A DNA stretch of 37,556 bases from positions 1-37,556 of the forward strand of contig JAZDPV010000003.1 in NCBI GenBank assembly GCA_043797265.1, given 5' to 3'. A program made the translations under genes and the position numbers. Below, one piece after another: positions 7,359 through 36,436 of the stretch. Below the pieces are notes generated by a model that made no database searches, had not been told where the DNA came from, and saw only the letters and a program-made list of their open reading frames with translations. Source of the DNA: an archaeon (GTDB lineage Archaea; Nanobdellota; Nanobdellia; Pacearchaeales; GW2011-AR1). The first letter of the stretch is position 1; the number at the start of each line of letters is the position of its first letter.

Positions 7359-8759
7359 ATGAAACAAAAATTTTACGTAACAACGCCGATATATTACCCG
7401 AACGACGTCCCTCACATCGGGCACGCATACACAACCATAGCGGCAGACGTCCTCGCGCGCTGGCACAAACTCCAAGGCGACGAAGTTTTCTTTCTAACCG
7501 GAACCGACGACCACGGAAAAAAAATTGCCGAAGCCGCACAAAAAACAGGCAAGTCCCCCAAAAAATTCACCGACGACCTAATTCCAAAATTCAAAGACGC
7601 CTGGGAAAAACTAAACATCAACTACGACAGATTCATAAGAACAACCGACCCCGACCACGAAAAAATCGTTCAGGAAATCCTCCAAAAAGTTTACAACAAC
7701 GGCGACATTTACAAGGGCGAATACGAAGGATTCTATTGCACCGGTTGTGAAGCATACTACACCGAAAAAGACCTCGAAGACGGCAACTGCCCAATCCATA
7801 AAACAAAAATCGAAAAACTAAAAGAAGAAACCTACTTCTTCAAACTTTCAAAATATCAGGACAAGCTTTTAAAACTTTACGAAAAAAATCCAAAATTTAT
7901 TTTACCAAAACACCGACGTCAAGAAATTATTAACAGAGTAAAAGAAGGACTAAAAGATTTGAGCATTTCAAGAAACTCGTTCGATTGGGGAATAAAACTC
8001 CCATTCGACAAATCACACATAGCATACGTTTGGTTCGACGCGCTCTTCAATTATTATTCCGCGACAAGACAAAAAGGAAAAGAAAAATTCTGGCCCGCAG
8101 ACGTCAACCTAATCGGCAAAGACATTCTCTGGTTCCACACCGTATACTGGCCGGCATTCCTAATGTCAGCAGGAATCGAACCGCCAAAATCAGTTTACGC
8201 TCACGGATGGTGGACATTCAATAAAGAAAAAATTTCAAAGTCACGTGGAAAAGTAATCAACGTCGACGAACTAATTAAAATCGCAGGAGTCGACTCGGCA
8301 AGATATTTTCTATTTAGAGAATCATCATTTGGCGAAGACGGCGACTTCTCAGAGAAAGCATTAATTGACCGTCACAACAACGAACTCGCGAACAAGCTCG
8401 GCAATCTCATCTCGCGAACCTCGGCTCTCGTCGAGAAACATGATATCGAAAAAATCCCAAACACACTACTAAAAAAATCAGACCTAAAAAAAATAAATAC
8501 CTATATACAAAATTTTGAACTCGACAAAGCCCTCAATGAAATCTTCGCCTTCATCGACACCTGCAACGAATTTATCCAAGCCAAAAAACCATGGGAGACA
8601 AAAGACAAAAAAGTTCTCTATCAACTCGTCAATTCAATCCGCCAAATCGCAAAACTCCTCTCCCCATTCATTCCCGAGTCCGCAGAAAAAATCTCAAAAA
8701 TTTTCGAAACAGACAAAATTAAAAAAGCCCCAATACTATTCAACAAAATAATTCAGTAG
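7359..8759 (+). CDS. metG: Methionyl-tRNA synthetase (short form, no C-terminal OB domain)
   Basis: YVTTPIYYPND.PHIGHAY, GTDDHG, zinc knuckle CTGC...CPIH, YVWFDAL, KISKS (KMSKS-like). Confidence 0.96.
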   Translation: MKQKFYVTTPIYYPNDVPHIGHAYTTIAADVLARWHKLQGDEVFFLTGTDDHGKKIAEAAQKTGKSPKKFTDDLIPKFKDAWEKLNINYDRFIRTTDPDHEKIVQEILQKVYNNGDIYKGEYEGFYCTGCEAYYTEKDLEDGNCPIHKTKIEKLKEETYFFKLSKYQDKLLKLYEKNPKFILPKHRRQEIINRVKEGLKDLSISRNSFDWGIKLPFDKSHIAYVWFDALFNYYSATRQKGKEKFWPADVNLIGKDILWFHTVYWPAFLMSAGIEPPKSVYAHGWWTFNKEKISKSRGKVINVDELIKIAGVDSARYFLFRESSFGEDGDFSEKALIDRHNNELANKLGNLISRTSALVEKHDIEKIPNTLLKKSDLKKINTYIQNFELDKALNEIFAFIDTCNEFIQAKKPWETKDKKVLYQLVNSIRQIAKLLSPFIPESAEKISKIFETDKIKKAPILFNKIIQ

Positions 8760-9679: not shown

Positions 9680-9800
9680 CCTAACCTTGGAACTGGTTAG
9701 GCTACACGTTGATTAATTCACAATTCAATCACGACAATTAGTAGTTTACACGAATATTGAAATGATGGTGATTTACTTTCAATTAATCAACTATATAGTC
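9680..9800 (+). ncRNA. Putative structured 5' segment of the DGR template RNA
   Basis: cctaacc/ggttagg hairpin (9680-9701); gttgattaatt (9708-9718) pairs with aattaatcaac (9781-9791); inner ttcaat/attgaa; TATA-like ttataaaa at 9650-9657. Confidence 0.5.
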
Positions 9801-9908: not shown

Positions 9909-10928
9909 ATGAAAACTTACAAAAACATCTATTACAAAATTTACAAATGGGAAAATCTAGTTCTCGCTTTCAGAAAAGCGAGAAAAGGAAAAACAAAAAA
10001 AGATTACGTAAAAAAATTCGAGGAAAACTTAATAGAAAACCTGCAACAACTTCAATTCGAACTAATGACTCAAACCTACAAACCAAAACCACTAAAAACA
10101 TTTATACTTCGCGACCCGAAAACCCGCAAAATATCCAAATCACATTTCAGAGACAGAATTATTCATCACGCACTTTGCAACATAATAGAACCAATCTTCC
10201 AAAAAACTTTCATTCACGATTCTTGCGCAAACCAAAAAAGAAAAGGCAATATTTTCGCAATAAAAAGATTCGACAAATTTAAGAAAAAAGTTTCAAGAAA
10301 CGGGAAACAAAAGGGATGGTTCAACAAAAACCAAGTTAAGGGATATTGTCTAAAAGCAGACATAAAACATTATTTCGAAGAAGTTAACCAAGAAATATTA
10401 ATCAATATAATCAACAAAAAAATAAAAGACAAAAACACAATGTCTTTAATTACAAAAATTATAAAAAATTATAAAAATAAACAAAAAGGCATGCCCCTCG
10501 GAAATTTTACAAGTCAATTCTTCGCAAATATTTACCTCAACGAACTTGATTATTTTACAAAACAAAACCTAAAAACAAAATATTATATAAGATACGTCGA
10601 TGATTTCATAATTTTACATTCAAGTAATTCACAATTAATTATATGGAAAAGAGAAATTAAAATATTCTTAAAGAAAAATCTAAACCTTCAACTTCATCCT
10701 CAAAAATCCCGAATCATTAAATTATCTAACGGAATAGATTTTGTCGGATTTAGAATTTTTTATTATACTAAATTATTAAGAAAAAGGAATATAAGAAAAA
10801 TGCAAAACACAATAAAACAATATAAAAACGGCAAAATAACAAAAAATAAATTAAACGAAATTTATCAAGGTTGGTCAGCTTATGCAAAATGGGCAAATCC
10901 TTTTAAACTTCAAATGAATTTAATATAA
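9909..10928 (+). CDS. DGR-type reverse transcriptase
   Basis: FRDRIIHHAL, KADIKHYF, GMPLGNFTSQFFANIYLNELD (DGR-type GNxTSQ), YIRYVDDF, GIDFVGF; 339 aa with no maturase X/endonuclease extension. Confidence 0.95.
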   Translation: MKTYKNIYYKIYKWENLVLAFRKARKGKTKKDYVKKFEENLIENLQQLQFELMTQTYKPKPLKTFILRDPKTRKISKSHFRDRIIHHALCNIIEPIFQKTFIHDSCANQKRKGNIFAIKRFDKFKKKVSRNGKQKGWFNKNQVKGYCLKADIKHYFEEVNQEILINIINKKIKDKNTMSLITKIIKNYKNKQKGMPLGNFTSQFFANIYLNELDYFTKQNLKTKYYIRYVDDFIILHSSNSQLIIWKREIKIFLKKNLNLQLHPQKSRIIKLSNGIDFVGFRIFYYTKLLRKRNIRKMQNTIKQYKNGKITKNKLNEIYQGWSAYAKWANPFKLQMNLI

Positions 10929-10929
10929 G

Positions 10930-11265
10930 ATGCAACCAATTCCTTATTCCGACTTCGAAAAACTCGACCTCCGCGTCGCCGAAATTATCAAGGCAGAAGA
11001 CATCGAAAACGCAGACAAACTTTACAAACTAACAATCAGCGTCGGTGATTTAGGCGAAAAAACAATCTGTGCCGGCATAAAACAATTCTACGCAAAAGAA
11101 GAACTTCAAAACAAAAAAATAATTATCATAGCAAATCTCGAACCACGAAAACTCCGGGGCATCGAATCTCAAGGAATGCTTCTCGCCGCCGGAAATAAAG
11201 AAACAGACACGTGCATCTTGATAGTTCCAGACAAAGAAATCCCATCAGGAACAAAAATCAGCTAA
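10930..11265 (+). CDS. Stand-alone tRNA-binding OB-fold protein (MetRS C-terminal domain/Trbp111 family)
   Basis: DFEKLDLRVAEI, ADKLYKL, ANLEPRKLRGIESQGMLLAA. Confidence 0.92.
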   Translation: MQPIPYSDFEKLDLRVAEIIKAEDIENADKLYKLTISVGDLGEKTICAGIKQFYAKEELQNKKIIIIANLEPRKLRGIESQGMLLAAGNKETDTCILIVPDKEIPSGTKIS

Positions 11266-17597: not shown

Positions 17598-18059
17598 CTA
17601 TATAAATTTACCTAATCCTTGTTTGGTTAAAATACGACGAAGACAATGGATGCCCCGAATTTTAATTTGCCTCACTCCCTCTCTTGTCATGCCCATCTCT
17701 TTTCTAATTTCTTCCAACGTTCTTCCTTCATAATAAATCTCCTTTATAACTTTCACCATTCTCTCTCCGCTAGAATTAGGTTGCCCATAAACAATCTTCC
17801 CTCGATTATCATAATCGATTTCCGTAAGAATCCCCAGCGCCCACCCAAGGTCCATACACCAATCCAAATCTTCAACACTCGGTCCCCCTCGAATACACGG
17901 TCCAATATCCAAAACATCTATCGACCTTTCCATGGCCTTCTGATTCTTTCCGCCAGAATACCGACGACCATTCAATAAATCAGACACTCGTACATAATGG
18001 CCCATCCCATCATATTCCTTTCCCCTCGCCCAATCATTTTTATTTCCAGCCTGTCTCAT
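17598..18059 (-). CDS. Protein with a C-terminal sigma70 region 4-like HTH
   Basis: RTLEEIRKEMGMTREGVRQIKIRGIHCLR closely parallels the sigma70 r4.2 consensus xTLEEVGxxFxVTRERIRQIExKALxKLR. Confidence 0.7.
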   Translation of the reverse strand: MRQAGNKNDWARGKEYDGMGHYVRVSDLLNGRRYSGGKNQKAMERSIDVLDIGPCIRGGPSVEDLDWCMDLGWALGILTEIDYDNRGKIVYGQPNSSGERMVKVIKEIYYEGRTLEEIRKEMGMTREGVRQIKIRGIHCLRRILTKQGLGKFI

Positions 18060-18509: not shown

Positions 18510-18530
18510 TTCTAACAATCTAAAAACAAA

Positions 18531-18605
18531 TGGCCCCGACGGGATTTGAACCCGCGACACCCGGATTAAGAGTCCGGTGCTCTAACCAGGCTGAGCTACG
18601 GAGCC
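18531..18605 (-). tRNA. tRNA-Lys (CTT)
   Basis: Reverse complement GGCTCCGTAGCTCAGCCTGGTTAGAGCA-CCGGA-CTCTTAA-TCCGG-GTGTC-GCGGG-TTCAAAT-CCCGT-CGGGGCCA. Confidence 0.95.
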
Positions 18606-18758
18606 ATATGACAAAGCTCATGGCTGGTTTCACGAAATATCTCTTATGCTACTTTAACCAGACCGAGATACAAAGCCACACAAACTCAAGAGAGAATTTA
18701 ATTTAAAAAACTATCCAATCACACAAATTTTTATATACCAAAATTGCAAAATACCAAA

Positions 18759-25052: not shown

Positions 25053-25418
25053 TCAAGTCCCATCTTTCACTCTTACCAAATATCCTTCGGAGAAGCTTTC
25101 CGCCTTTTTCTCTAAATATCCAATTGCCGCATCACGAAATTCTCTTCTTATGTCCCCATCATTAGTTTTTTTTGTGACACTCAACAATTTTCTTGTTGTC
25201 GTCGAGCTTGTCGCAGCATCACCACGACGATATTCAGTTACAGTCAAAGCTGCTCCATTATTAAGTTCAGTTACCTCATATTCGAAACAAGGACGTTCAC
25301 GAATTAATATTTTTAGAAGGTCGGGATCACTTGTTTCAACACCCGTCCAAAAACGACCATCACAACTATAAAGAACATAAAGTATATTAATAGGACCCAT
25401 AAATTTTTCCATCCTCAT
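25053..25418 (-). CDS. Hypothetical protein
   Basis: 121-aa ORF with a TATA-like sequence upstream. Confidence 0.55.
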   Translation of the reverse strand: MRMEKFMGPINILYVLYSCDGRFWTGVETSDPDLLKILIRERPCFEYEVTELNNGAALTVTEYRRGDAATSSTTTRKLLSVTKKTNDGDIRREFRDAAIGYLEKKAESFSEGYLVRVKDGT

Positions 25419-30437: not shown

Positions 30438-30686
30438 ATGATAATCGGCATTCTCCTCGGCATAAGCGCCTCAATCTCGCTAACATCGCTCATAATAATT
30501 ATCACAACAGCGACGGGGCTAATCAAAAAAAACCTCGCAACCGGCGCGGCCATCGGCACAACCACAACAATATCCTACGCATCAATCACCCTCATAACCT
30601 CTCTAATCGCCACCTTCCTCCTGATACTAATTCTCAAAAAATCAATCAAAGATAAATCCCATCCTCATCTCAAGCACACCATATAG
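30438..30686 (+). CDS. Small two-TM membrane protein
   Basis: 82 aa with two hydrophobic stretches. Confidence 0.5.
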   Translation: MIIGILLGISASISLTSLIIIITTATGLIKKNLATGAAIGTTTTISYASITLITSLIATFLLILILKKSIKDKSHPHLKHTI

Positions 30687-30913
30687 TGCACAATACATTT
30701 CAAATAAAAAAATTTACAAATAATAAACCTTCGCCTTCCCGCTGTCTTTGGATTTGATTTTACCGACGTCAACCAAGCAGCGAAGATAACCCAACAAAAC
30801 CGCCCGATTAATTTCCGGCAAAGCCACGGCAATCTCCTTCTGGGTGCACGGCTCTCCCTTCTTTCCCAAAAAAGAAACAATCTTCTCACATAGCATACCA
30901 TATAATGCACAAT
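30673..30913. repeat. 22-bp direct repeat flanking the small wHTH gene
   Basis: agcacaccatatagtgcacaat (30673-30694) versus agcataccatataatgcacaat (30892-30913), 20/22 identical. Confidence 0.7.
30714..30896 (-). CDS. Small winged-HTH protein (60 aa)
   Basis: TQKEIAVALPEINRAVLLGYLRCLVDVGKIKSKDSGKAKVYYL has the helix-turn-helix-wing pattern. Confidence 0.7.
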   Translation of the reverse strand: MLCEKIVSFLGKKGEPCTQKEIAVALPEINRAVLLGYLRCLVDVGKIKSKDSGKAKVYYL

Positions 30914-30945
30914 GCCCTTTAAAAATTTTACGAAAAATAAAAATG

Positions 30946-30973
30946 CCCTGGGTTTCCTTTCGAAAACCCAGGG
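30946..30973 (-). terminator. Strong hairpin followed by a T-run on the minus strand (terminator-like)
   Basis: ccctgggttt/aaacccaggg 10-bp stem; the minus strand continues cattttta. Confidence 0.5.
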
Positions 30974-30999
30974 TGGAGGAGGGTGATGAAAAGTCAGCA

Positions 31000-31385
31000 A
31001 AAAGAAAGCCCCATGAAAGAGGGAGCTACTTCGAAACTCTCCACAGGGCTTTCTTTTGGTCGTGCAGCGTCGGTTCTCCAGCAATTCCTTTTACTGATTG
31101 GTGTCTCCCACCGAGAACAAAACCGCTACACGAACCAACCCACCTTGACTAACTCACAGCGCTCCATCAACCATCTAATTTCACGAACCCGACGCTATCT
31201 TATTTCCCCGTTACATTATAATAACAAAGAAAGCCCCACGAAGGAGGTTCCATGAGGCTTTCTGGGTGTAGCACGCTGTTTCATTTCGTCAACGGATACA
31301 ATGTCTTTCGTAGATGTTCCCGCCACCGACAACAACACTGCTACACAACCAACCCTCTGTAAGTCAACTCTCACAGAGTTCGCTC
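31000..31385 (-). ncRNA. Two tandem ~160-nt structured modules (31001-31164, 31226-31385), putative ncRNA
   Basis: Shared blocks aaagaaagccccaYgaa, ggctttct, gtgYagc, caccga, gctacac-aaccaaccc, ctcacag, cgctc; same two-domain pairing pattern; G.U pairs work only on the minus strand. Confidence 0.6.
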
Positions 31386-31987
31386 GTCTATTGTCTGTCT
31401 TCTTCTTTACATTCGACGAACTTGGTCGGAACCACTTCTCCTAAACAATAGTAGGCGGACCATGGCCAACTCTCCTCATCTGAAGGTTAGTCGAATCCAC
31501 ACAGCACCTTCGCAAAAAACAGGTGCACACTTTTTCATTGCCCCGCGCTACCGAAAACACTGCGGGCGCCTTTCACCAAAGCCAACATTTCCAGACCATC
31601 CATCGTTCCAACCCAATCGCATCAATCCCTTTACCAGGTTTGGCAGGAATATAATCTTCTTCTCCTTACACGTCAATCCCCTAAGATTTAAAACGCAGGG
31701 AAGAGTCATATCATTCCTCTCGTCCGATGCCGGTCGGGTTGAATCACAGCGACGATAAACGGTCACACCAGCCATTCCCGCCACATTTTCTCATGCAGCA
31801 AAAACAGCACGACGAGAACCCAACTCTCCACCTCCTTTCACTTCCAAACATCTTCTAAACATGAACGTTCACGAATTACCGACAATACGCCTTTTCTATA
31901 CGCATCACCTCCTTTCACAAATGGGTTTGCGCGAAATAAGACGTATTCCAACCAAAAATCAAAGACACCCCCAACTAAAGAAATCAT

Positions 31988-32072
31988 TATCACAATTTCT
32001 GGAGGGTCGCTATATGTAGTCGTTAGTTCAAAGAGCAGAGCTCGATGTGATACGCCAAAGGCAGTTAATGTA
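31988..32072 (-). ncRNA. Structured 5' leader/ncRNA motif, copy A
   Basis: Homologous to 33403-33488; begins about 23 nt downstream of a TATA box (32095-32102). Confidence 0.65.
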
Positions 32073-32156
32073 TAATAAAAATAGGCGTTTCAACTTTAAA
32101 AATATTTGTATGATGACACCCTGCCCATCCAAAGATGAAAGCAGGGGCAATCGGAG

Positions 32157-32717
32157 TTACTCTTCATTACTTGCTATCGTCCCCCCGGACGGCTTCTCCT
32201 CCACGCGACGTACTTTGACCGTCACGCAATGAAAGGGCTGGTCTGTCTTGAATATCGCGTATTCCATCCCGCCCCGCTTCTCAACCCCCTCTCTCTCGAC
32301 CGGACGAACGTCGTCGAATATAATGAAGTCCTCTCCAACCTTCGCCGTCTCGAGTTTCTTGGCGCACTCTTCATTCACGTTCGTAAGGAAAAATAGAAAT
32401 TTCCCGCCCCCAATCTCGCTGTGGGTGTACACGTTCGCAAGGAATTTCCCTTCAATCCCCCTGACGACACACCCCTCAATGATGTACCTCACCTTGACGT
32501 TGACCTCAGCGACGACACCCCCTCGCCCCACACGACCAGTCGAGTTCAAAGAAGGAGCATCAGCAATAGCAAAATAAAGGGCAAGGCAAGCCATCACCAA
32601 AGAGATAACCACCAGTCCCGGAATCAGCTTCGGCATCCGCCCATCCCACCAATCTCTCCATCCCTCATCTCTCTGAACCTTTCCACTCTCACCATTACTC
32701 GTCTGTTTCTTCGCCAT
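32157..32717 (-). CDS. Single-pass membrane protein (186 aa), unknown function
   Basis: Charged N-terminus, one TM helix, beta-rich C-terminal part; GAAAGGA ribosome-binding-like site upstream. Confidence 0.65.
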   Translation of the reverse strand: MAKKQTSNGESGKVQRDEGWRDWWDGRMPKLIPGLVVISLVMACLALYFAIADAPSLNSTGRVGRGGVVAEVNVKVRYIIEGCVVRGIEGKFLANVYTHSEIGGGKFLFFLTNVNEECAKKLETAKVGEDFIIFDDVRPVEREGVEKRGGMEYAIFKTDQPFHCVTVKVRRVEEKPSGGTIASNEE

Positions 32718-32777
32718 GACAAATTTCCTTTCATAGAATACTATTCTCCGTCGACAACTCTTTGTTCTACCACAACA

Positions 32778-32948
32778 TCACCCCCCAACCGCGCTAATCA
32801 GCCAGTAAATTCCCCAGCAAATCAGCCCGACAATCACTGCGCTAATCACCCAACAAACCAGCACAAGAGCCACCGCCGAAACGGCCCAATGGGGAATCCG
32901 AATCCAATCTCGTTTCCCCACTCCACTACTACTTTCTTTCTCGCACAT
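32778..32948 (-). CDS. Small membrane protein (56 aa, below the ORF-track cutoff)
   Basis: Manual translation MCEKESSSGVGKRDWIRIPHWAVSAVALVLVCWVISAVIVGLICWGIYWLISAVGG; AAAGAAAGGA upstream. Confidence 0.6.
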   Translation of the reverse strand: MCEKESSSGVGKRDWIRIPHWAVSAVALVLVCWVISAVIVGLICWGIYWLISAVGG

Positions 32949-32985
32949 CTTACACATCCTTTCTTTATAGAATTCGTTATCTACA

Positions 32986-33261
32986 TCACTTGTTCGACTC
33001 CCTCAACTTCCTTGCCAAATCATCCCTCTCCTCACGAAGAACCGCCAGCTCCCTCTCCAACTCGGCAATCCTCGCATCCTTCGGCTCAACCCCCCCAACT
33101 CTCTCCAATCTAACCGGAGCCACTCCAAATTCCGGAAGAACCGCATTCATCACCGCCCCCGCAAACACCAACAAGAACGCCACCGCTCCAACAATGAGCA
33201 TCCAACCCAAATCCCCCAACGGCTTCTTCTCTCTCGTCCCCTCGACACTCACCTTACTCAT
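32986..33261 (-). CDS. Small membrane protein with C-terminal coiled coil (91 aa)
   Basis: TM helix WMLIVGAVAFLLVFAGAVM followed by KDARIAELERELAVLREERDDLARKL. Confidence 0.65.
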   Translation of the reverse strand: MSKVSVEGTREKKPLGDLGWMLIVGAVAFLLVFAGAVMNAVLPEFGVAPVRLERVGGVEPKDARIAELERELAVLREERDDLARKLRESNK

Positions 33262-33402
33262 CTCGCGCCTCTCTTTCTTTATCGAACTTATTCCAACCTA
33301 TTCCGCCAAAACTCACACGAGTCTCAAACACCCAACTATAAAAATCTCGAAATCCCGTCGACAAACAAGTTATTCTAACTTATTCCGGGTCCGCTTCAAC
33401 TT

Positions 33403-33488
33403 ACCGCAATCTCTGGAGTGTCAATACGAAGTCGTCAAAGTTCAAAGCAACAAAGTTGCGATGCGGTGCCAAAGGCCAAGTTAATGTA
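33403..33488 (-). ncRNA. Structured 5' leader/ncRNA motif, copy B
   Basis: Homologous to 31988-32072 with compensatory stems; BRE-TATA gaaaaggtttttata about 21 nt upstream on the minus strand. Confidence 0.65.
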
Positions 33489-33564
33489 AAACTCACAGAA
33501 AATCATACTATAAAAACCTTTTCATTGTAGTTATTATAAAGTGACAGACAACTCCGCCAAATCA

Positions 33565-33665
33565 TCTACCGAAACGCAAAGCATTTCGTTCTACCAAAAA
33601 TGCTTCGCATTTTTGTTCTCCCAGAAAATCAAAGATTTTCTGTTCTACCGACAAAGTCGTTCTAC
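33565..33665. repeat. Array of four small hairpins separated by TTCTAC/TTCTCC
   Basis: cgaaacgc-aaa-gcatttcg, caaaaatgc-ttc-gcatttttg, cagaaaatc-aaa-gattttctg, cgac-aaa-gtcg. Confidence 0.8.
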
Positions 33666-34324
33666 TTCCCAAGCGAATCCTTAATCAACTTCGCCTCGAC
33701 CGCCAAAATTTTTCTGTCTCTCGCAGTTTTGTCCGCATCAGATTTCTCCTTCGCTTTCTTCGCCATCAGCCCAACCGACTTGAAAATCAAAGAATAAATA
33801 ACTCCAACAATCACAGCAAACCCCAAAACAATAAACCCAATCCACCATTGCGTCATCAACGAATTCATCCACACAACCAAATCCTTCCCAAATCCCTGCA
33901 TCGCCAAAGTCGCTATAATCCCAGCCCCAATCAAACTCCACCAAATCCCCCAATCAAAAATCGAACTCACAGGAACAATAATAAACACAATCAGCAATAT
34001 CCAAACAATAAAAGAAAAAACAAAAACCCAACTCAACTCCAACTCAACTCCCCAAAGCACCTTCGTAACCGGCCCGACATATTTATTTATCTCCGCAATC
34101 CTCTCCTCCGCCTTCGATTTGAACGGACTATACTTGCTAAAATTAACTTTACCCGAATCATCCAACGGCGAATAATTCCCAACAAAAGCATTTACCGTAT
34201 CAACATCTCCAGAATCAGAACCACCCTCGGGCGACACCCCAACAAACGCATTTCCCCCCTCGACAAAAATCAGGCCACCAAAAATCAAACCAATCACCAA
34301 CAAAACAATCAACACTTTTTTCAT
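33662..34324 (-). CDS. Multi-pass membrane protein
   Basis: Signal/TM helix plus three further TM segments and a basic tail. Confidence 0.7.
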   Translation of the reverse strand: MKKVLIVLLVIGLIFGGLIFVEGGNAFVGVSPEGGSDSGDVDTVNAFVGNYSPLDDSGKVNFSKYSPFKSKAEERIAEINKYVGPVTKVLWGVELELSWVFVFSFIVWILLIVFIIVPVSSIFDWGIWWSLIGAGIIATLAMQGFGKDLVVWMNSLMTQWWIGFIVLGFAVIVGVIYSLIFKSVGLMAKKAKEKSDADKTARDRKILAVEAKLIKDSLGK

Positions 34325-35583: not shown

Positions 35584-35997
35584 TTATTTTTCAAACTCTT
35601 TAATAACTTTCTTAAAATCCTCAATCCCTTCTTTTATCATTTCAAACGCTTGTTTATCGTCGACCTCGCCATATCGATGAACCAAAATATTTCTAAACCC
35701 TCTCATCTTCCTCACTAACTCCGCACTCTCCCCAGACAACTTCCCATTCTCCTCCAAATTATCTATTGAGTTCCCCTCGTCCTCTGGAATCCCAAAACCA
35801 AAATCTGAATTAACTATATTACAAATATCCAAAATCAATTCTATCGACGACTCAATCCGTTTGTATATCCCGTCCTTCTTCAATCCCATCTTCTTAAATT
35901 CTCCAAAACTTTTCGGCAAACCCTCTCGCAAAATTTCCAAATTATCAACTATCCCGACAATTTTCTTATCAATCAAATCTTTCCTCAACCCAGACAT
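35584..35997 (-). CDS. hepT: HepT-like HEPN ribonuclease toxin (DUF86)
   Basis: RX4HXY motif GFRNILVHRYGEVD. Confidence 0.9.
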   Translation of the reverse strand: MSGLRKDLIDKKIVGIVDNLEILREGLPKSFGEFKKMGLKKDGIYKRIESSIELILDICNIVNSDFGFGIPEDEGNSIDNLEENGKLSGESAELVRKMRGFRNILVHRYGEVDDKQAFEMIKEGIEDFKKVIKEFEK

Positions 35998-36362
35998 ACT
36001 TCCTTCCTCCTCTCGACGTAATCATCAACATACTTCTTGAAATCTCCAAATCTTCTCAGCGTCTCGCAAGCAACATCATAAACAAACGTCCCTTCAGAAA
36101 AATACAAAAGCTTCCCTTTCAAAACATCCGCTCTCAAATACAACGGCAAGTCCTGAAAAATTTTCACATCATATTTGTCCCCCAACTTCCCCATCACCTT
36201 AACTCTAAAATCAAATCGTTCTTTCTCGCTCCCATCATAATAAACAGCCAAATCCACGTCGGAAAATTTATTGTTTTTCTCCGTCGCCATACTCCCAAAT
36301 AAAAAAACAAACTTCACTCTACCCCCGCCAATCTTCTTAATTTTCTCAATAACTTCTTCCAT
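35985..36362 (-). CDS. mntA: MntA-like minimal nucleotidyltransferase antitoxin
   Basis: FLFGSMA...SDVDLAV (GSX10DXD); overlaps the downstream HEPN gene. Confidence 0.9.
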   Translation of the reverse strand: MEEVIEKIKKIGGGRVKFVFLFGSMATEKNNKFSDVDLAVYYDGSEKERFDFRVKVMGKLGDKYDVKIFQDLPLYLRADVLKGKLLYFSEGTFVYDVACETLRRFGDFKKYVDDYVERRKEVCLG

Positions 36363-36436
36363 AAACACCACAACCAAGCGCAAATTATAAACTTTTCCAT
36401 CAACAATTTTATAAACATCAAATTTCTAATCCTTGA

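Follow-up and report, generated by a model that had tools for sequence, protein, structure and literature searches.

The DNA analysed here, referred to as the window, is a 37,556-nucleotide stretch of contig JAZDPV010000003.1 from assembly GCA_043797265.1 (G000; 625 kb, 83% complete). Its genes include those for NAC, TFS, family-B DNA polymerase, CDC48, FEN1 and several tRNA synthetases, and the source is a DPANN-type archaeon. Two copies of a short structured motif, designated A and B, lie on the minus strand between TATA boxes and open reading frames (ORFs); copies of the B type are followed by no conserved ORF. Comparison across five sister species, with good support for two helices, identifies the motif as a genuine candidate for an uncatalogued structured RNA. 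The motif copies, their TATA boxes and the sequence and genes that follow them lie on the minus strand; elsewhere, strand is marked as (+) or (−).

Two motif copies downstream of TATA boxes

The core of the motif comprises a closing stem of 5-7 base pairs (P2), an optional hairpin and a loop of ~40 nt that contains conserved boxes. Copy A (33400-33487, core 33487-33403) scored 72.5-73.9 bits with the covariance models described below. It begins 21 nt after the end of its TATA box, TTTTTATA (33509-33516), and orthologous promoters are kept in the relatives G068, G031 and G033. The spacing of 27 nt from hexamer to start equals the genome-wide TATA-to-ATG spacing of leaderless genes; because of this shared spacing, the predicted transcription starts were placed at the A of ACATTAACT in both copies, at ~33487 for A and ~32071 for B. 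From the AU-rich 5′ end ACATTAACT (33487-33479), copy A proceeds through a first hairpin, P1, GCC-TTT-GGC (33476-33468), into P2, ACCGCA/TGCGGT (33467-33462 with 33408-33403), which encloses the inner hairpin P3, GCAAC-TTT-GTTGC (33459-33447), preceded by TC. Next come TTTGAACT (33446-33439), ACGACT and GAC-A-CTCCAGA-G-ATTG, with CTCCAGA itself at 33418-33412; the resulting loop boxes are UUUGAACU, GACGAC and UUGACACUCCAGAGAU.

Copy B (31986-32071, core 32071-31988; 65.7-67.9 bits) begins 23 nt after the end of TTTTTAAA (32095-32102), a TATA box kept in G023 and G031 and replaced by TTTTTAAGG in G068. Its parts follow in the same order: ACATTAACT (32071-32063), the P1 hairpin GCC-TTT-GGC (32062-32054), P2 as TATCACA/TGTGATA (32052-32046 with 31994-31988), P3 as GAGC-TCT-GCTC (32043-32033), preceded by TC, then TTTGAACT (32032-32025) and CTCCAGA (32004-31998), with loop boxes UUUGAACU, GACUAC and GACCCUCCAGAAAU. 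The original prediction, made from the DNA letters alone, had proposed this shared series, starting 21-23 nt after a TATA box. Each feature that it listed was found on the minus strand at the spacings given above, its 5′ coordinates being off by a trivial single base. Exactly two occurrences of the composite pattern TTTGAACT..ACGACT..GACNCTCCAGA were found in the window, against none in 100 shuffles, and the entire 625-kb genome has no others.

The prediction had also held that the stems differ between copies while remaining paired, and the comparison bears this out: two of the six P2 pairs are changed on both sides (C-G to U-A and G-C to A-U), and P3 is rebuilt with different bases. Single-sequence folding placed P1, P2 and P3 in the minimum-energy structure of each copy. 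Copy A also forms an outer helix that pairs its 5′ end with the 3′ flank; by eye, this helix is kept neither in copy B nor in the orthologues, and it was dismissed.

Long leaders would be exceptional in this genome, which does look largely leaderless. In a crude survey of 309 ORFs of at least 150 aa, TATA-like hexamers concentrate 30-26 nt before ATG codons (122 starts in that bin, versus 10-20 in each of the other bins upstream of −20), a pile-up that agrees with the earlier impression of leaderless genes. Shine-Dalgarno-like words precede 42 of the same 309 ORFs.

That the motif belongs to no recognised family, another part of the original prediction, was upheld by Rfam 15. At gathering thresholds, the whole window returned only an RT-16 RNA and two tRNAs, all away from the motif, and permissive scans of 31700-33800 and 30500-32200 placed nothing over A or B (best E values 0.7-2.7, from unrelated families). 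ARAGORN likewise found tRNAs only at 2925-2995 and 18530-18606, the same places as the Rfam tRNA matches, and none over the motif. C/D-box RNAs are recognised by RUGAUGA and CUGA, and H/ACA RNAs by an ACA 3′ of a stem; no C/D or ACA box was conserved on direct reading of the 14 aligned copies.

Homologues and covariation of the helices

When all 49 species of the genus were searched at the DNA level, syntenic loci emerged in G068, G023 and G031. Seven aligned copies, with P2 and P3 as the structure, provided a covariance model (R1) that was rebuilt with new matches as R2 and R3. Such a search had been named as a check in the original prediction; together with inspection, it yielded 15 motif copies, 14 of them distinct, in five of the 49 species, their stems kept by compensatory changes. 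A-type copies occur in G000, G068, G031 and G033, B-type copies in G000, G023, G068 and G031, and D-type copies on contig 18 of G000 and in G068. Further copies lie on contig 30 of G031, 3′ of the winged-helix gene of G023, and on contigs 124, 5 and 87 of G033, the last two being nearly identical. All 15 copies are oriented like the gene that follows; in 13, a TATA-like box precedes P2 by 35-50 nt, and most copies lie 12-20 nt after the predicted transcription start. The motif has been retained where the flanking non-coding DNA has diverged beyond recognition.

Beyond these species, neither R2 in 150 further genomes of the order nor R3 in one genome each from 150 further genera of the family gave a convincing match, and three family-level R3 matches of 22.5-24.7 bits were rejected on inspection. 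Exact-pattern scans of metagenome and species-genome collections recovered the same organisms only, with five of 15 loci fitting the model; in a viral collection, 15 loci matched the pattern and none fitted the model. Within the genus, a pattern match in G025 falls in a coding region and has no stems, which marks it as chance; weak model matches in G071, G018, G022, G029 and G013 lie in coding or AT-rich DNA and lack the boxes; and those in G015 and G062, with a second one in G018, look unconvincing as alignment rows, the only form in which they were seen. The count of 15 leaves out uninspected matches in G070 (16.1 bits), G024 (15.1 bits) and G119 (24.6 bits). A descriptor scan of G000 returned 13 matches versus 16 in a reversed control, with only A, B and D real; its match at 25304-25390 falls inside a 121-aa ORF.

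Across the family, the core of P2 takes seven helix sequences, all complementary: ACCGC/GCGGU, ACCAC/GUGGU, AUCAC/GUGAU, AUCGC/GCGAU, ACUAC/GUAGU, ACUGC/GCAGU and GCCAU/AUGGC. The last of these, from G033, amounts to replacement of the whole helix. Quantitatively, among the 14 distinct sequences, standard pairs fill 85.9% of cells (67.4 ± 2.3% in shuffles, none of 500 reaching the observed value), changes on both sides affect all 11 modelled pairs (matched by one shuffle in 500), and the covariation score is 0.472 (0.220 in shuffles, none of 500 reaching it), with the caveat that significance from these shuffles is overstated because the family is limited to five related species. Sliding the partners by 1-3 columns, which keeps relatedness intact, reduced the covariation score to 0.039-0.103, and smaller sequence sets gave the same picture. 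On plain MAFFT alignments, RNAalifold recovered P2 and P3 from four B-type orthologues, and P2 with a downstream 10-bp hairpin from three A-type orthologues. P2 is also present in the minimum-energy fold of all 14 trimmed copies. G-U pairs occur in P2 and P3 columns and in an extra A-type hairpin of G068 and G031 (ACGACC/GGUUGU), and fit an RNA of the motif strand only.

Some details of the original prediction hold in A and B and are not general. The GCC-TTT-GGC hairpin is found in three of the 14 distinct copies (a weaker CC-TTTT-GG in a fourth), P3 is absent from three (the G068 A-type copy and those on contigs 124 and 5 of G033), and the CUCCAGA box is altered in six, for example to CCCAAAU, CUCUAAA or UUUGGAA. 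Some A- and D-type copies contain one more hairpin, P4, which shows a compensatory change of its own (GGAA/UUUC versus AGAA/UUCU). Overall, the loop boxes (UUGAAC-like; GAC(G/U)AC; and (U)UGAC-N-CUCCAGA-R-AU) stay constant while the stems are rebuilt. Variable compensated stems around conserved unpaired nucleotides are typical of an RNA with a recognised loop.

Sequence and genes downstream of the motif

Weaker similarity between A and B had also been noted beyond the core and is present, both as GATTT.T.TAGTTGGG (33346-33331 and 31985-31970) and as GGTTGGAATA. The A-type leader retains a conserved downstream part (33331-33399) in G068 and G031. This includes the hairpin GAAUAAGUUA-GAA-UAACUUGUUU (33385-33363), for which RNAalifold kept all ten pairs in three orthologues, and a U-run or TATA-like box, GAUUUUUAUAGUUGGG (33346-33331), that may act as a second promoter or, through its U-run, as a terminator. 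Copy B is followed by the box GAUUUCUUUAGUUGGGGG (31985-31968).

A repeated word, GGAAUA, marks the sequence that follows. Two repeats stand just 5′ of the first ORF of unit A (33289-33304), a third lies at 33386-33381, and copy B has one at 31949-31944. Counted as GGAATA, 15 occurrences fall within 140 nt after P2 in 11 copies (9.7 per kb, versus 0.38 per kb per strand genome-wide), an enrichment of ~25-fold. At least one is present in eight of the 11 copies versus 5.7% of control windows, and at least two in five copies versus 0.06%. Such clusters are not unique to leaders: the genome contains 14 of two or more. After the motif copies of loci L090 and L099 (G033 contigs 128 and 124), we also observed a hairpin element, GUAAGAAACC..GGUUUCUUAC, then CAACUUCC; one motif copy is followed by a single such hairpin element and another by two.

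On the plus strand, GC skew lies between about −0.2 and −0.67 nearly throughout the window and is ~0 only at plus-strand genes. This very strong strand asymmetry makes transcripts G-rich and C-poor and therefore renders the C-rich box of the motif conspicuous. CCUCC reads in the same sense as the 16S anti-Shine-Dalgarno sequence usually does; no 16S rRNA was found in the 83%-complete assembly. By eye, CCUCCAG can form 5-7 pairs with a downstream UUUUAG-YUGGRGG in most copies, with some compensatory changes. Pairing between CCUCCAG and the downstream box is nonetheless a conjecture, and as a pseudoknot or long-range interaction with YUGGRGG it was set aside, being indistinguishable from random G-rich windows.

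Unit A (32157-33261) encodes ORFs of 91 aa (32986-33261), 59 aa (32778-32957) and 186 aa (32157-32717), each with a hydrophobic segment when the translations were read by eye and none with a Pfam family above cut-off. The A-type copy of G068 precedes a 39-aa hydrophobic peptide and then a protein of >319 aa with a hydrophobic N-terminus, and that of G031 precedes a 48-aa lipoprotein-like ORF. D-type copies precede a signal-peptide protein of 384 or 383 aa that matched no Pfam family; only three of 5.8 billion sequences match the 384-aa protein, itself included. The extra copy of G023 is followed by a small basic ORF, partly masked, and a signal-peptide protein of >380 aa. Overall, the downstream ORFs are lineage-specific, bear N-terminal hydrophobic or signal-like segments, and by eye have purine-rich Shine-Dalgarno-like sites at their 5′ sides.

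From the ORF lists, copy B is followed by an ORF-poor stretch of ~1 kb (30933-31985) that ends in a hairpin (30973-30946) and a U-run (30945-30933). It has no protein-level conservation with G023, G031 or G068 and no match to the rest of the genome; models of archaeal signal recognition particle (SRP) RNA and RNase P RNA (RF01857 and RF00373) found no match there. The stretch (30960-31987) may encode a long non-coding RNA or consist of decayed genes; descent from a paralogue of the 121-aa gene was rejected, since short matches with E values of 0.02-0.2 in a tiny search space are not significant. Contigs from an environmental RNA library are 100% identical to 31210-31376 and 31598-31741. They are weak evidence, as contigs cannot prove transcription and show no starts, ends or strand; one DNA contig of a relative spans 33455-33574. 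We also noted an internal 22-nt repeat (31001-31022 and 31226-31247) and, near the end of the stretch, a C-rich 19-mer identical in G023 and G031. SRP RNA was matched nowhere in the assembly, nor in 30500-32200 at E values up to 10, and an RNase P RNA lies on contig 7 of G000 (2318-2615; 83.1 bits, slightly below the family cut-off of 84).

Beyond the B unit, a gene for a 60-aa winged-helix protein (30714-30896; Pfam TBPIP winged helix, E value 4.7e-5) has its own promoter, which lies beyond the hairpin and U-run that close the ORF-poor stretch, and is a syntenic neighbour of the unit in G023, G031 and G068. It is flanked by a 32-nt direct repeat (30673-30704 and 30892-30923; 81% identical). 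Just 5′ of a start codon, each repeat has a partly palindromic stretch together with a TATA-like box; it may represent an operator for autoregulation that the next gene shares.

On the other side, between the stop codon of a gene for a 227-aa membrane protein and the copy A promoter, four short hairpins form a tandem array (33555-33664 (−)), split by the 8-mer GGTAGAAC and ending in GGTAGATGA. Similar arrays occur on contig 7 (~9690-9800 (+)) and contig 18 (~17991-18050 (+)) of G000, at loci L011, L015 and others, and in several relatives; between contigs 3 and 7 the hairpin sequences differ and pairing is kept. The array may act in termination or insulation, or form a structured element at a 3′ end. 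Elsewhere in the window, the RT-16 RNA (RF03019, 79.3 bits; 9680-9799 (+)) stands immediately 5′ of a gene for a 339-aa reverse transcriptase (9909-10928 (+)), the pair being flanked by a methionyl-tRNA synthetase gene (7359-8759) and a separate tRNA-binding-domain gene (10930-11265). HepT-like ribonuclease and nucleotidyltransferase genes overlap by a few bases at 35584-36383 (−), as a typical toxin-antitoxin pair.

Possible functions and comparison with known RNAs

Our leading interpretation, which we hold tentatively and give close to an even chance, is a leader acting in cis: a structured RNA domain, specific to this lineage, that several transcription units would carry at the 5′ end or 12-20 nt beyond it. 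P2, often with P3, would hold ~40 nt in a loop, so displaying the unpaired boxes UUGAAC, GACGAC and UGAC-CUCCAGA-AU as a recognition surface. We infer a factor acting in trans, most probably a protein, that would bind the domain together with the GGAAUA repeats behind it. It would control either how stable these unusual leadered mRNAs for secreted and membrane proteins are or their Shine-Dalgarno-dependent translation. The cis-regulatory inference of the original prediction gains from the covarying homologues, the position after predicted promoters and the lack of an Rfam match; its riboswitch-like aspect finds no shared downstream function that would point to a ligand.

Several observations weigh against a cis-acting leader. 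The covariation values come from alignments fitted to the model and from closely related sequences, set against shuffles that ignore phylogeny. A and B fold with unexceptional energies (z = −0.67 and −0.61), not every copy has P1 or P3, and in the two D-type copies the best TATA box stands ~100 nt upstream. The downstream proteins are mutually unrelated, only the two D-type orthologues matching each other, and B-type copies have no obvious gene to regulate, because the 0.5-1.1 kb that follows them holds no conserved ORF. Duplexes of CCUCCAG with its own downstream 140 nt were no better than those with 400 random G-rich genome windows (RNAduplex), a fraction of 0.15-0.99 of the controls being at least as good. 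The one RNA library has no contig over copy A or B, and no candidate binding protein was identified. Finally, the family is real but narrow, confined to five of the 49 species of one genus, and this distribution limits its general importance.

In DPANN archaea, genomes are tiny, recognisable regulators are few and most mRNAs lack leaders; a conserved structured leader before lineage-specific secreted and membrane genes would therefore offer a concrete handle on control of the cell surface. The element is small, with clear covarying helices and invariant boxes, and is directly testable in vitro. A bolder version, which we regard as unlikely, is that the motif represents the first described cis-regulatory RNA regulon of DPANN archaea. 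In that version, the leader would be a sensor peculiar to the clade; on binding a protein or a small molecule, it would switch a set of rapidly evolving secreted and surface proteins in concert, with GGAAUA as a second binding platform and CCUCCAG as an anti-Shine-Dalgarno mimic. If so, the controlled proteins would be of the kind expected to mediate host-cell contact in organisms with reduced genomes, and their mRNAs would be the rare leadered ones of an otherwise leaderless genome. No paper on regulatory RNAs in DPANN archaea emerged from full text concerning Woesearchaeota and riboswitches, or from the titles of the literature on DPANN structured RNAs and transcription starts.

A possible alternative, though not one we expect, is a stand-alone small non-coding RNA of ~90-150 nt that is transcribed from its own promoter, ends at the first U-run and uses its C-rich box in trans, for example on G-rich Shine-Dalgarno regions, the neighbouring genes having promoters of their own. 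The A-type sequence offers a perfect TATA-like stretch with a T5 run, GATTTTTATAG (33346-33336), ~140 nt beyond the predicted start; this stretch, which is kept in G068 and to a lesser degree in G031, could serve as terminator and second promoter. U-runs follow P2 closely in the B-type copies of G000 and G068 and on contig 30 of G031, no conserved ORF lies behind B-type copies, and the anti-Shine-Dalgarno sense of CCUCC would find potential partners in the Shine-Dalgarno-like motifs before 42 of the 309 surveyed ORFs. Against this, the position of the U-run differs across types, the conserved GGAAUA repeats extend right up to the ORFs, and the RNA-library contigs lie far downstream of B in the ORF-poor stretch, as read-through would give. 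No target was identified, and the C-rich box pairs as well with random G-rich windows.

A role at the DNA level alone, either as a promoter-proximal operator array (for a winged-helix protein, for example) or as a promoter cassette spread by recombination, is improbable. The motif always adjoins a promoter, is multi-copy and limited to a small clade, and contains repeated short words (TTGAC-like and GGAATA) that could be protein sites on DNA; a winged-helix gene is, moreover, the syntenic neighbour of the B unit. Operators conserve sequence, however, and compensation in seven versions across two nested helices would be unexpected of them. On the opposite strand, the G-U pairs would read as A-C mismatches, and all 15 copies face the same way relative to transcription. 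Nested compensated helices, G-U pairs and fixed orientation together make a purely DNA-level operator unlikely.

We are at least as doubtful of a metabolite- or ion-sensing riboswitch, in which the conserved loop would be a ligand pocket closed by P2. The architecture is aptamer-like, with covarying helices around conserved unpaired nucleotides, a general riboswitch trait, here in the form of stems around invariant junction nucleotides. Its place after TATA boxes and before ORFs would also fit a 5′ position, and it recurs several times per genome before different genes. A second general trait, a shared metabolic or transport theme among downstream genes, is absent: these encode secreted or membrane proteins of no assigned function, with no transporter or enzyme theme, or there is no gene. 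This lack of a theme, together with a very narrow distribution unlike that of most riboswitch classes, makes a metabolite riboswitch less likely. In addition, the loop boxes differ between types (CUCCAGA becoming CCCAAAU, CUCUAAA or UUUGGAA), and no expression platform was identified.

Least probable of all is a non-functional origin in recent duplication and shared ancestry, with covariation as a by-product of relatedness and a fitted alignment: the restriction to five closely related species, ordinary z-scores and phylogeny-blind shuffles would allow it, but A and B already show double compensatory changes with kept loop boxes in one genome, GCCAU/AUGGC in G033 replaces an entire helix, slid partners that keep relatedness score 0.039-0.103 versus 0.472, and the motif persists where flanking non-coding DNA has become unrecognisable.

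Returning to the cis-acting leader that we favour, comparison with known systems reveals partial likenesses. Archaeal guide and tRNA-like RNAs are similarly ~70 nt long with their own promoter, and the succession of closing helix, 2 nt and hairpin resembles the start of a tRNA; the motif differs in lacking conserved C, D and ACA boxes, an ARAGORN tRNA and a match to the Rfam clans of those RNAs. With the bacterial ompA and S-layer leaders, 5′-terminal stem-loops that stabilise the mRNAs of highly expressed envelope proteins, the motif shares the form of a long structured leader before secreted or surface genes and, in some of its copies, a hairpin near the 5′ end. Unlike them, the motif has P1 in only three of 14 distinct copies and conserves loop boxes, which a simple stabiliser would not need. 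C-rich-box regulatory RNAs, which pair with Shine-Dalgarno regions, and leaders that sequester such sites, likewise bacterial, share with it an exposed CCUCCAG in an otherwise C-poor transcript, with YUGGRGG and Shine-Dalgarno-like sites downstream. In contrast to those RNAs, pairing in the motif is unsupported (15-99% of controls are as good), the box varies and the host is archaeal. Lastly, although the motif differs from orphan riboswitch candidates in having no Rfam match, a DPANN-type host, a range of five species and no common annotated downstream function, it resembles that class and Rfam leader motifs, as far as titles in this literature convey, in being a short, presumably 5′ element that lies upstream of genes, with covarying stems, conserved unpaired nucleotides and no known ligand.

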